From the NCBI RefSeq assembly GCF_003334405.1, contig NZ_QOWM01000036.1: a stretch of DNA of 2,487 nt. The stretch is one strand, 5' to 3'. The DNA is from Escherichia coli (GTDB lineage: Bacteria; Pseudomonadota; Gammaproteobacteria; Enterobacterales; Enterobacteriaceae). Under the pieces are notes generated by a model. That model made no database searches. It had not been told where the DNA came from and worked only from the letters and a program-made list of their open reading frames with translations. Position numbers and translations under genes: made by a program. Shown here in pieces: positions 1 to 2,487 of this stretch. Position 1 is the first letter of the stretch; every line of letters begins with the position of its first letter.

Positions 1-27
1 TGAGGTGTACTGGCAATAGCGGACACT
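1..27. repeat. Terminal inverted repeat of the outer IS3-family element (orfB-proximal end)
   Basis: 1-27 TGAGGTGTACTGGCAATAGCGGACACT aligns with the reverse complement of 2461-2487 (TGAGGTAGCCTGAGTTTAACGGACACT) at 19 of 27 positions, including identical TGAGGT tips and a shared CGGACACT block. Confidence 0.8.
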
Positions 28-43
28 ACCATTTGTTCTTTTT

Positions 44-862
44 TTAAGCAGCCATCTGATGATATTTTTCCCTGAAGGCTGCCGGGGAGATATTCCCCAG
101 ACGAGAGTGACGACGCTGACGATTGTAGAAAATCTCAATGTATTCCCGTATTACTGAGATGGCTTCATCCCGGTTATTAAAACGATAGTGGCTCAGGCTC
201 TCATTTTTCAGCGTTCCCCAGAAGCTTTCCATCGGAGCGTTGTCGTAACAGTTACCTTTACGCGACATTGATGTTTTCAGACCAAACTGCTCCTGTATGA
301 CCCGGTAATCGTATGCGCAGTACTGTGAACCTCGATCAGAGTGGTGGATTAGCCCGGCAGGTGGGCGCTGGCTCCTGAGCGCCATAAACAGGGCTTTACC
401 TGTCAGCTCTTTTGTCATGCGCTCTCCCATGGCGTAGCCGACAATTTCGCACGTATAAACATCTTTGATGCCAGCGAGGTACAACCATCCCTCCTGTGTG
501 GCAACATACGTCAGGTCCGCCACCCAGACCTGATTTGGTGCTGTAGGAGCGAACGTCTGGTTCAGCAGATTTGGCGCAACTGGCAGATTGTGGTTCGAGT
601 TCGTAGTCGCTCTGAACTTGCGTTTCTGCTTACAGCGTAGCCTTAGCTCCTTACGAAGACGTGCCAGTCGGTCACGACCAACGATGATGCCATTCTCTGC
701 CAGCTCCGTCTGGAGCCGCCGGGTTCCATATGTTTCGCGAGTGCGGATATGTGCCACCTTAATCTCCAGTTTTAGCCGCTCATCACTTTGTTTTCTGTCT
801 GAGGGTTCATGCTGTACCCAGTTGTAATAACCGCTCCTGGATACACCAAATACCTGACACAT
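44..862 (-). CDS. IS3-family (IS600-like) orfB, the transposase catalytic DDE domain; normally made only as an OrfA-OrfB fusion by -1 frameshifting, now separated from orfA by IS30
   Basis: 272-aa ORF with DDE-type motifs VWVADLTY, HHSDRGSQY and YDNAPMESFWGTLK (E then K at +7). It sits in the -1 frame relative to orfA once IS30 is removed. The frame stays open upstream of the ATG at 862 to the IS30 junction at 939, reading SVFCTGVAEKYALIEQWRQQFPIEA-MCQVF, typical of IS3-family orfB. No Shine-Dalgarno precedes the ATG at 862. Confidence 0.9.
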   Translation of the reverse strand: MCQVFGVSRSGYYNWVQHEPSDRKQSDERLKLEIKVAHIRTRETYGTRRLQTELAENGIIVGRDRLARLRKELRLRCKQKRKFRATTNSNHNLPVAPNLLNQTFAPTAPNQVWVADLTYVATQEGWLYLAGIKDVYTCEIVGYAMGERMTKELTGKALFMALRSQRPPAGLIHHSDRGSQYCAYDYRVIQEQFGLKTSMSRKGNCYDNAPMESFWGTLKNESLSHYRFNNRDEAISVIREYIEIFYNRQRRHSRLGNISPAAFREKYHQMAA

Positions 863-902
863 CGCTTCAATGGGAAATTGTTGTCGCCATTGTTCGATTA
901 AC

Positions 903-936
903 GCGTATTTTTCAGCGACTCCTGTGCAAAATACGC
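903..936 (-). other. Predicted RNA hairpin, a candidate frameshift-stimulatory structure, now separated from the heptamer by IS30
   Basis: GCGTATTTT (903-911) and AAAATACGC (928-936) form a perfect 9-bp inverted repeat with a 16-nt loop. In the reconstructed element the stem starts 6 nt downstream of the heptamer. The orfA stop TAA follows at 898-900. Confidence 0.5.
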
Positions 937-937
937 T

Positions 938-939
938 GT
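938..939. repeat. Target-site duplication of IS30 (GT), left copy
   Basis: GT immediately left of the IS30 left end, repeated at 2161-2162 immediately right of the right end. IS30 is known to make 2-bp duplications. Removing one copy restores a continuous orfA/orfB overlap region. Confidence 0.8.
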
Positions 940-965
940 TGTAGATTCAATTGGTCAACGCAACA
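940..965. repeat. IS30 left terminal inverted repeat (26 bp)
   Basis: 940-965 matches the reverse complement of 2135-2160 at 23 of 26 positions. Confidence 0.88.
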
Positions 966-988
966 GTTATGTGAAAACATGGGGTTGC

Positions 989-993
989 GGAGG
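989..993 (+). promoter_or_regulatory. Shine-Dalgarno sequence for the IS30 transposase
   Basis: GGAGG, 8 nt upstream of the ATG at 1002. Confidence 0.75.
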
Positions 994-1001
994 TTTTTTG
1001 A

Positions 1002-2153
1002 ATGAGACGAACATTTACAGCAGAGGAAAAAGCCTCTGTTTTTGAACTATGGAAGAACGGAACAGGCTTCAGTGAAATAGCGAATATCCTGGGTTCAAAA
1101 CCCGGAACGATCTTCACTATGTTAAGGGATACTGGCGGCATAAAACCCCATGAGCGTAAGCGGGCTGTAGCTCACCTGACACTGTCTGAGCGCGAGGAGA
1201 TACGAGCTGGTTTGTCAGCCAAAATGAGCATTCGTGCGATAGCTATTGCGCTGAATCGCAGTCCTTCGACGATCTCACGTGAAGTTCAGCGTAATCGGGG
1301 CAGACGCTATTACAAAGCTGTTGATGCTAATAACCGAGCCAACAGAATGGCGAAAAGGCCAAAACCGTGCTTACTGGATCAAAATTTACCATTGCGAAAG
1401 CTTGTTCTGGAAAAGCTGGAGATGAAATGGTCTCCAGAGCAAATATCAGGATGGTTAAGGCGAACAAAACCACGTCAAAAAACGCTGCGAATATCACCTG
1501 AGACAATTTATAAAACGCTGTACTTTCGTAGCCGTGAAGCGCTACACCACCTGAATATACAGCATCTGCGACGGTCGCATAGCCTTCGCCATGGCAGGCG
1601 TCATACCCGCAAAGGCGAAAGAGGTACGATTAACATAGTGAACGGAACACCAATTCACGAACGTTCCCGAAATATCGATAACAGACGCTCTCTGGGGCAT
1701 TGGGAGGGCGATTTAGTCTCAGGTACAAAAAACTCTCATATAGCCACACTTGTAGACCGAAAATCACGTTATACGATCATCCTTAGACTCAGGGGCAAAG
1801 ATTCTGTCTCAGTAAATCAGGCTCTTACCGACAAATTCCTGAGTTTACCGTCAGAACTCAGAAAATCACTGACATGGGACAGAGGAATGGAACTGGCCAG
1901 ACATCTAGAATTTACTGTCAGCACCGGCGTTAAAGTTTACTTCTGCGATCCTCAGAGTCCTTGGCAGCGGGGAACAAATGAGAACACAAATGGGCTAATT
2001 CGGCAGTACTTTCCTAAAAAGACATGTCTTGCCCAATATACTCAACATGAACTAGATCTGGTTGCTGCTCAGCTAAACAACAGACCGAGAAAGACACTGA
2101 AGTTCAAAACACCGAAAGAGATAATTGAAAGGGGTGTTGCATTGACAGATTGA
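1002..2153 (+). CDS. insI: IS30 transposase (DDE family, 383 aa)
   Basis: Uninterrupted 383-aa ORF. GGAGG at 989-993 lies 8 nt upstream of the ATG. N-terminal helix-turn-helix-like regions and catalytic motifs HWEGDLV, LTWDRGMEL and GTNENTNGLIR (E then R at +7). Protein and length match the IS30 transposase as I recall it. Confidence 0.95.
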   Translation: MRRTFTAEEKASVFELWKNGTGFSEIANILGSKPGTIFTMLRDTGGIKPHERKRAVAHLTLSEREEIRAGLSAKMSIRAIAIALNRSPSTISREVQRNRGRRYYKAVDANNRANRMAKRPKPCLLDQNLPLRKLVLEKLEMKWSPEQISGWLRRTKPRQKTLRISPETIYKTLYFRSREALHHLNIQHLRRSHSLRHGRRHTRKGERGTINIVNGTPIHERSRNIDNRRSLGHWEGDLVSGTKNSHIATLVDRKSRYTIILRLRGKDSVSVNQALTDKFLSLPSELRKSLTWDRGMELARHLEFTVSTGVKVYFCDPQSPWQRGTNENTNGLIRQYFPKKTCLAQYTQHELDLVAAQLNNRPRKTLKFKTPKEIIERGVALTD

Positions 2154-2423
2154 ATCTACAGTTGCTTTTTTTAATATATCTCGCTCAAGGCGAGCTTCAT
2201 TTAACGCCTTACGCAGTTGCAGAATTTCAGATTCCAGTTCAGCCACCGTGCGGGAACCAGGAGTACCGAGCCCTTTTCTGGCGGCGGTAACCCATTGTCC
2301 TAAAGTGCCTTCAGGAAGAGATAATCGGGAAGCGCCTTCACTGATCGAAAGTTGATTTTCAAGAACCGTTCTGACAGCTTCGGCTTTGAACTCTTTAGAG
2401 TAACGTTGGGTTTTTCTGCTCAT
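2073..2423 (-). CDS. IS3-family (IS600-like) orfA, 3' end disrupted by IS30; the open frame is chimeric, with 87 native codons (2423-2163) and a junction codon 88, then a 28-aa tail read from IS30 antisense sequence
   Basis: N-terminal helix-turn-helix-like region (LSISEGASRLSLPEGTLGQWV) and a leucine-rich region ending ERDILKKAT match IS3-family OrfA. The frame crosses the IS30 junction at 2160/2161 and stops at 2073. With IS30 removed, orfA would instead continue ...KKATAYFAQESLKNTR and stop at TAA (898-900), about 100 aa. AAGGAG ribosome-binding site 7 nt upstream of the ATG. Confidence 0.8.
   Translation of the reverse strand: MSRKTQRYSKEFKAEAVRTVLENQLSISEGASRLSLPEGTLGQWVTAARKGLGTPGSRTVAELESEILQLRKALNEARLERDILKKATVDSICQCNTPFNYLFRCFELQCLSRSVV
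2135..2160. repeat. IS30 right terminal inverted repeat (26 bp)
   Basis: Partner of 940-965, 23 of 26 matches. Contains a perfect TTGACA hexamer (2142-2147) pointing outward. Confidence 0.88.
2161..2162. repeat. Target-site duplication of IS30 (GT), right copy
   Basis: See left copy at 938-939. Confidence 0.8.
2166..2172 (-). promoter_or_regulatory. Programmed -1 ribosomal frameshift heptamer A AAA AAA near the 3' end of orfA
   Basis: Minus strand reads TTA AAA AAA GCA in the orfA frame. A -1 slip here reads KK-SNSV and, once IS30 is removed, continues in-frame into orfB. This position and motif type are characteristic of IS3-family elements. Confidence 0.7.
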
Positions 2424-2429
2424 TATTAG

Positions 2430-2435
2430 CTCCTT
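2430..2435 (-). promoter_or_regulatory. Shine-Dalgarno sequence for orfA of the outer element
   Basis: Minus strand reads AAGGAG, then CTAATA, then the ATG at 2423-2421. Confidence 0.7.
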
Positions 2436-2443
2436 CTGATGCC

Positions 2444-2472
2444 ATTCTATTTCAGGAAGGAGTGTCCGTTAA
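2444..2472 (-). promoter_or_regulatory. Candidate sigma70-type promoter for orfA, partly inside the terminal repeat
   Basis: Minus strand has TTAACG (2472-2467, -35-like), a 17-nt spacer, then TAGAAT (2449-2444, -10-like), upstream of the orfA ribosome-binding site. Motif match only. Confidence 0.3.
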
Positions 2473-2487
2473 ACTCAGGCTACCTCA
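2461..2487. repeat. Terminal inverted repeat of the outer IS3-family element (orfA-proximal end)
   Basis: Partner of the repeat at 1-27; same alignment, 19 of 27 matches. Confidence 0.8.

Follow-up and report, generated by a model that had tools for sequence, protein, structure and literature searches.

An IS600 element split by IS30 forms a complete Escherichia coli draft contig with a probable home at the hchA–porin locus

The stretch of DNA analysed here (the window; 2,487 bp from Escherichia coli) consists of one insertion sequence (IS) within another, an IS600 element split by IS30, and its first and last bases are those of the outer element. This raises the question of why a sequence should start and stop exactly at the termini of a mobile element, and where in the genome that element resides. 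The coincidence is not chance, as the window is a whole draft contig: it is byte-identical to the entire contig QOWM01000036.1 (2,487 bp, assembly GCA_003334405.1; sequence identity checked), to which a look-up of the exact IS30 protein with its Thr82Ile change also leads (gene at 1002–2153). The account proposed here, of a repeat-bounded draft contig carrying IS600::IS30 whose probable home is the hchA–porin locus, is assigned a probability of about 0.85. Both elements are textbook insertion sequences and nesting of this kind is common; the finding is already known in kind and is ordinary.

The window contains a single IS600 copy (minus strand, 1,264 bp) interrupted by an intact IS30 at 940–2160, and there is no sequence that belongs to neither element. 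Its features are as follows (a dot indicates that no strand applies).

1–939, minus strand: 3′ part of IS600 (sense nucleotides 326–1264) with orfB, which encodes the catalytic portion of the transposase (NF033516 match; RefSeq annotation)
1–27, dot: IS600 terminal inverted repeat at the orfB end, the window start (pairs with 2461–2487)
903–936, minus strand: inverted repeat with arms 903–914 and 925–936 (12 nucleotides, 92% complementary), just downstream of the frameshift heptamer in the uninterrupted element
938–939, dot: left copy of the 2-bp IS30 target duplication, GT (abuts the IS30 end)
940–2160, plus strand: complete IS30, 1,221 bp, with terminal inverted repeats at 940–965 and 2135–2160 (repeat pair, comparison with K-12 IS30D, annotation)
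1002–2153, plus strand: intact IS30 transposase gene, 383 amino acids (open reading frame [ORF] list, NF033563)
1246, plus strand: private single-nucleotide polymorphism (SNP), T for C, giving Thr82Ile in the IS30 transposase (marks the window allele)
2161–2162, dot: right copy of the 2-bp IS30 target duplication, GT (abuts the IS30 end)
2161–2487, minus strand: 5′ part of IS600 (sense nucleotides 1–327), with the orfA start at 2423 (ORF list, NF033516, K-12 fragment)
2165–2171, minus strand: programmed −1 frameshift heptamer of IS600, A AAA AAG (seen in the reconstructed IS600)
2461–2487, dot: IS600 terminal inverted repeat at the orfA end, the window end (pairs with 1–27)

The window was compared with an E. 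coli chromosome (L001), the IncK2/Z plasmid pCP55-141k (L002), a Shigella dysenteriae virulence plasmid (L003), E. coli K-12 (L005), strain SL112 with an IS-free site (L006), the chromosome of a sequence type 131 (ST131) strain (L007) and the window contig itself (L012). Bases 1 and 2487 are the exact limits of similarity in L001, L002, L003 and L007, with unrelated DNA beyond; K-12 has the right end only, and there too similarity ends exactly at base 2487. The window ends carry imperfect inverted repeats of 27 nucleotides that are 70% complementary (TGAGGT...ACCTCA, with TG...CA ends). The initial annotation, made from the sequence alone, had taken the window ends for the termini of the outer element, and the repeats at 1–27 and 2461–2487 together with the loss of similarity at these points in five contexts establish this. 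Its remark that flanking host DNA is absent holds as well, the window being a complete contig made up entirely of IS600 and IS30.

The outer element is IS600, a member of the IS3 family, as judged from its sequence. Excision of IS30 and one GT copy restores a 1,264 bp element in which orfA and orfB are intact and the A AAA AAG site is present; the uninterrupted copies that bear the IS600 annotation in complete genomes are likewise 1,264 bp. In the reconstructed element a 100-amino-acid orfA in frame 0 is followed by orfB in frame −1, the two overlapping at AAAAAAAG (sense nucleotides 316–323). The orfB reading frame (44–862, minus strand) matches the NCBIfam model NF033516, IS3 family transposase, over profile positions 106–369 (E = 7e-100, 334.7 bits, cut-off 160), and the orfA part matches profile positions 1–81; precomputed Pfam families on the IS600 genes are rve, HTH_21 and HTH_Tnp_1. 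RefSeq labels the orfB DNA 'IS3-like element IS600 family transposase, missing N-terminus', and window positions 2161–2487 differ by one mismatch in 327 bp from the 327-bp 'insertion sequence:IS600' annotated in K-12. The name thus comes from labels in RefSeq and its annotation pipeline PGAP, the K-12 annotation and NCBIfam, rather than from the ISfinder reference. The window copy is 99–100% identical to RefSeq-labelled IS600 (IS3 family, IS3 group; Shigella and E. coli), which it resembles in length, in its TG...CA repeats, in the 0/−1 arrangement of orfA and orfB with A AAA AAG, and in the rve-type catalytic domain. It differs from an ordinary IS600 in being split by IS30, in having no OrfAB and, at its probable locus, in lacking the usual 3-bp duplication.

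The inner element has the hallmarks of IS30 as represented by K-12 IS30A–D and InsI: 1,221 bp, 26-bp terminal repeats, a 383-amino-acid transposase and a 2-bp target duplication. The transposase matches NF033563 (NCBIfam; E = 2e-82, 276.9 bits, cut-off 80) and contains HTH_38 and rve; the DNA is annotated as 'IS30-like element IS30 family transposase'. There are two mismatches to K-12 IS30D in 1,221 bp, at positions 1246 and 1694, and the protein differs from K-12 InsI solely by T82I, a private change in the N-terminal DNA-binding region. Since IS30 attacks the two target strands 2 bp apart (PMC9333248), the flanking GT dinucleotides are the duplication expected of it. With a full reading frame and both inverted repeats, this IS30 looks functional.

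The proposed history is short. A complete IS30 on the plus strand inserted into an IS600 on the minus strand and created the GT duplication; the insertion, two nucleotides past A AAA AAG, cuts orfA after codon 88 and leaves a copy without OrfAB whose ends are preserved. The frame of the cut orfA continues into the IS30 end (ORF 2073–2423, minus strand), and orfB now lies 1.2 kb away. IS3-family elements need the OrfAB fusion transposase, and the window IS600 is unable to make it because IS30 separates orfA from orfB. As its ends are intact, the element could be mobile only with OrfAB supplied in trans; no direct evidence of movement of IS600::IS30 by OrfAB in trans was found.

The initial annotation held that the genomic context could not be assessed. 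This is true of the window by itself, from which neither an outer duplication nor neighbouring genes can be read, but the exact allele was found in longer contigs at the hchA–porin locus. The key is position 1246: the full window is present with this one mismatch in 156 of 5,426 complete E. coli genomes and in 16 plasmid records, every complete-genome copy examined has C at 1246, and the T allele occurs in L009–L015 (draft and Logan contigs). The exact 2,487-bp sequence including T1246 lies inside a 35-kb contig (L009) with flanks as in the E. coli chromosome L001, the two being 99.96% identical over 11,152 bp; two further contigs from other samples (L010 and L011) have the same porin-side flank as L009. 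The gene order at the locus is hiuH, hprR, hprS, hchA, [IS600::IS30], porin, drpB, yedJ, dcm and vsr. The composite with hchA–porin flanks is found in 131 of the 5,426 complete genomes and the hchA–IS600 junction in 112. The window allele is therefore most likely located on the E. coli chromosome between hchA and the yedS-type porin gene, as inferred from these contigs.

No 3-bp duplication or direct repeat surrounds the element at this locus (L001 5990–6000), where the flanks read ...cgata|IS|tcttta...; a 3-bp duplication is likewise absent around the composite in the S. dysenteriae virulence plasmid (L003). Relative to the empty site in SL112 (L006 1700–1890), 191 bp are missing, with breakpoints ambiguous by 2–3 bp. 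Among the DNA lost are the final 22 codons of the porin gene (C-terminal ...VYQF), for which three IS-encoded residues substitute. The absence of the duplication is thus explained by the missing ~191 bp that include the porin 3′ end. The porin gene at the hchA locus (L001 8487–9535) is annotated as a frameshifted pseudogene. Where the element probably resides, its practical effects are minor: an inactive IS600, a seemingly active IS30 and a porin without its C-terminus.

The contig most likely stops at the IS600 termini because IS600 is repeated: if its ends recur elsewhere in the source genome, the assembler would have been unable to choose a flank and the contig would have ended there. Other contigs with the same allele break at different points, two (L010 and L011) beginning at window positions 496 and 527 and three (L013–L015) consisting of IS30 plus merely 19–55 bp of IS600 per side; these points too are repeat-related, which fits repeat-induced fragmentation. 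Loss of flanks in this way is ordinary in assembly, and finding the exact allele in other assemblies can supply what is missing.

Several points weigh against this account. Its two main steps, the cause of the contig ends and the placement of the allele at the hchA locus, are both inferred. If the only extra IS600 copies were uninterrupted ones, a plain unitig assembler would also break at the IS30 junctions; a contig spanning the composite implies either that the path was extended outward from the unique IS30 or that the complete composite is present more than once. The nested structure is also present elsewhere, on the IncK2/Z plasmid pCP55-141k, in a chromosomal island beside an integrase fragment (L018) and on the S. 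dysenteriae virulence plasmid.

The second of these points leads to the alternative that survives best, although it is unlikely: that the whole 2,487-bp composite is multi-copy in the source, having moved as a non-autonomous unit by means of its intact IS600 termini, with OrfAB provided in trans by other IS600 copies, so that the window stands for several loci. If the whole unit were repeated, a contig covering the composite from end to end would be the expected result; both IS600 ends are intact, and near-identical composites occur at unrelated loci with perfect IS600-type 3-bp duplications (TTC in pCP55-141k, L002; GTT beside sat in ST131, L007). Nor is there a clear population of uninterrupted IS600 at the hchA locus, given the 112 junction-bearing against the 131 composite-plus-flanks genomes. 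However, arrival of IS600 first and of IS30 later would lead one equally to expect a 3-bp duplication, and IS30 demonstrably hits its IS600 site time and again in independent events (in both orientations, in an IS600 diverged by 7%, and as IS30H; see below), so that a shared structure needs no transposition of the unit. Composites at different loci also differ by a few SNPs, and no genome was identified with two composites having common private SNPs.

That the window comes from a copy on a plasmid or in a pathogenicity island, and not from the chromosomal hchA–porin locus, is quite improbable. Full-length composites do exist in islands and on the 16 plasmid records (among them IncK2/Z, IncF and S. 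dysenteriae virulence plasmids), but all flanked contigs with T1246 (L009, L010 and L011, from three samples) map to the porin locus, and the plasmid and island copies examined have C at 1246 plus other differences. The repeat-bounded contig from the hchA–porin locus remains the preferred reading. The guess of the initial annotation at Escherichia or Shigella as host is supported: the elements are IS600 and IS30, and all records in which full-length nested copies turned up belong to E. coli or Shigella dysenteriae. Exact-pattern scans of species-representative genomes, with the left junction and with an orientation-independent right junction, gave no match and are uninformative on other hosts.

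The position of IS30 within IS600 raises a second question, as the same point is occupied repeatedly. The GT duplication begins two nucleotides downstream of the IS600 heptamer (window 2171–2165, minus strand), and the IS600 sense sequence at the insertion is AAAAAAAGCA[AC]AGCGTATTTTGC, where brackets denote the duplicated AC. The same IS600 dinucleotide carries IS30 in the reversed orientation in ST131 (L007), K-12 (L005) and Nissle 1917 (L019). On the S. dysenteriae plasmid the IS600 differs from that of the window at 89 positions (7%) and the IS30 at one, and the insertion point is identical; the closest IS600 differences are 14 and 29 bp from the junctions. Gene conversion was considered as the origin of this Shigella copy and rejected, as the junction flanks are identical over 14 and 29 bases only. 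The IS30H isoform, 90% identical, lies at the same IS600 site on plasmid pJNE132847_1. These comparisons of sequence support at least four independent IS30 hits on the IS600 site.

Further IS3-family elements are interrupted similarly. An IS911-like element in tssF of an enterotoxigenic E. coli (ETEC) strain (L008 2507–3727) reads ...CGCGGT|IS30|GTAGCCTTTTTTAATAT, with IS30 just past a slippery AAAAAAG and flanked by a GT duplication. The other end of IS30D in K-12 adjoins IS911B at ...TTAAAAAGGCTAC| (L005 7430–7460), and in strain M217 (L017 2790–2830) an IS30 end adjoins the orfA of a different IS3-family element ('...DILKKA') at ...TTAAAAAAAGCCGC|. The IS30 junctions in the IS911-like element, IS911B and the M217 orfA each lie a few nucleotides past the element's own slippery A-run.

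The abundance of these junctions was estimated with 100-nucleotide probes in the 5,426 genomes at a coverage threshold of 80%; the counts are orientation-specific because cross-matching between the two orientations reaches a coverage of only 76%. The numbers below reflect descent as well as recurrence and should not be read as counts of events.

IS30–IS600 junction in the window orientation: 854 of 5,426 genomes
IS30–IS600 junction in the opposite orientation: 1,284 of 5,426 genomes
Unoccupied IS600 site: 1,603 of 5,426 genomes
IS30 internal probe: 3,596 of 5,426 genomes (7,003 places)

Olasz et al. (1998) reportedly derived a 24-bp consensus of IS30 hot-spot targets. The IS600 insertion site is moderately palindromic, with 7 of 13 symmetric pairs, a score reached by just 24 of 1,238 IS600 positions, and this is in line with the description of IS30 hot spots as 'nearly palindromic' (PMC9333248); the LHS hot spot of lambda gives no convincing alignment with the IS600 site. 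Together the data point to the IS600 site as a putative natural hot spot of IS30, and such a target may be a general feature of the frameshift windows of IS3-family elements. A broader and more tentative proposal, to which we give somewhat less than even odds, is that the stretch downstream of the −1 heptamer in IS3-family elements is a sequence-directed hot spot for IS30 and IS30H, where repeated independent insertion inactivates the host element by uncoupling orfA from orfB. Were this so, non-autonomous copies would remain, perhaps still expressing a truncated OrfA regulator, and a sizeable share of E. coli IS30 copies would occupy such sites.

For those studying target choice and interactions between insertion sequences, recurrent insertion of IS30 in the frameshift window of IS3-family elements could be of interest. 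The literature found on IS600 together with IS30 consisted of IS inventories and contained no account of the nesting or of the shared site, in a search that left the IS30 literature in subscription journals largely uncovered, and novelty of the shared site is not claimed.

The closest described relative of the window structure is the cluster in KpLE2 of K-12 MG1655 (insO, insI3 and insM; NC_000913.3 4,507,125–4,509,801), which is laid out as IS911B, IS30D, a 327-bp IS600 fragment and IS911B-1. IS30 adjoins IS600 at the identical nucleotide, and the 327-bp fragment corresponds to window 2161–2487 bar the one mismatch. The cluster differs from the window in that IS30 is reversed and the orfB part of IS600 is lost, and in that IS30D meets IS911 at its other end, immediately past the slippery site of IS911 itself. 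The flanks of IS30D, AC on the IS911 side and GT on the IS600 side, are not a duplication, which suggests a later IS30-associated deletion or recombination. The cluster thus looks like a remnant of an IS600::IS30 structure, and the recurrent site would rationalise the long-annotated tangle of IS911B, IS30D and IS600 in K-12.

A history without a hot spot, in which one ancient insertion was passed on through vertical descent, transfer of islands and homologous recombination, would suit a junction that occurs in hundreds of genomes, many evidently related by descent, and IS copies that recombine readily, but it is very improbable: opposite orientations at one dinucleotide are incompatible with one event, differences 14 and 29 bp from the junctions of the Shigella copy leave almost no homology for gene conversion, the 90%-identical IS30H lies at the same site, and the analogous position is interrupted in an IS911-like element and in another member of the IS3 family.

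Three further observations concern the interrupted IS600 and its relatives. The truncated orfA is open for 116 codons, reading into the right end of IS30 (2073–2423, minus strand). A shortened OrfA retaining the predicted helix-turn-helix (HTH) and most of the leucine-zipper region might be made and act on other IS600 copies.

The inverted repeat at 903–936 gives a local hairpin of −13.1 kcal/mol (ViennaRNA). The 92-nucleotide fold around the frameshift site is no better than that of shuffled sequences (z = −0.5), and a stimulatory frameshift structure is for this reason not claimed as demonstrated; scanning the window against Rfam at E≤1 gave no match, frameshift elements included.

Some genomes and pig-associated plasmids carry a triple nesting, with IS903B, IS2 or another IS3-family element within IS600::IS30. 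Many E. coli plasmids carry composites truncated from the right and anchored at the left end (window 1–2177, 1–1952, 1–1757, 1–1465 and 1–1322), in which the left IS600/IS30 junction is kept and the cut lies inside IS30; these truncations are presumably due to later IS events.

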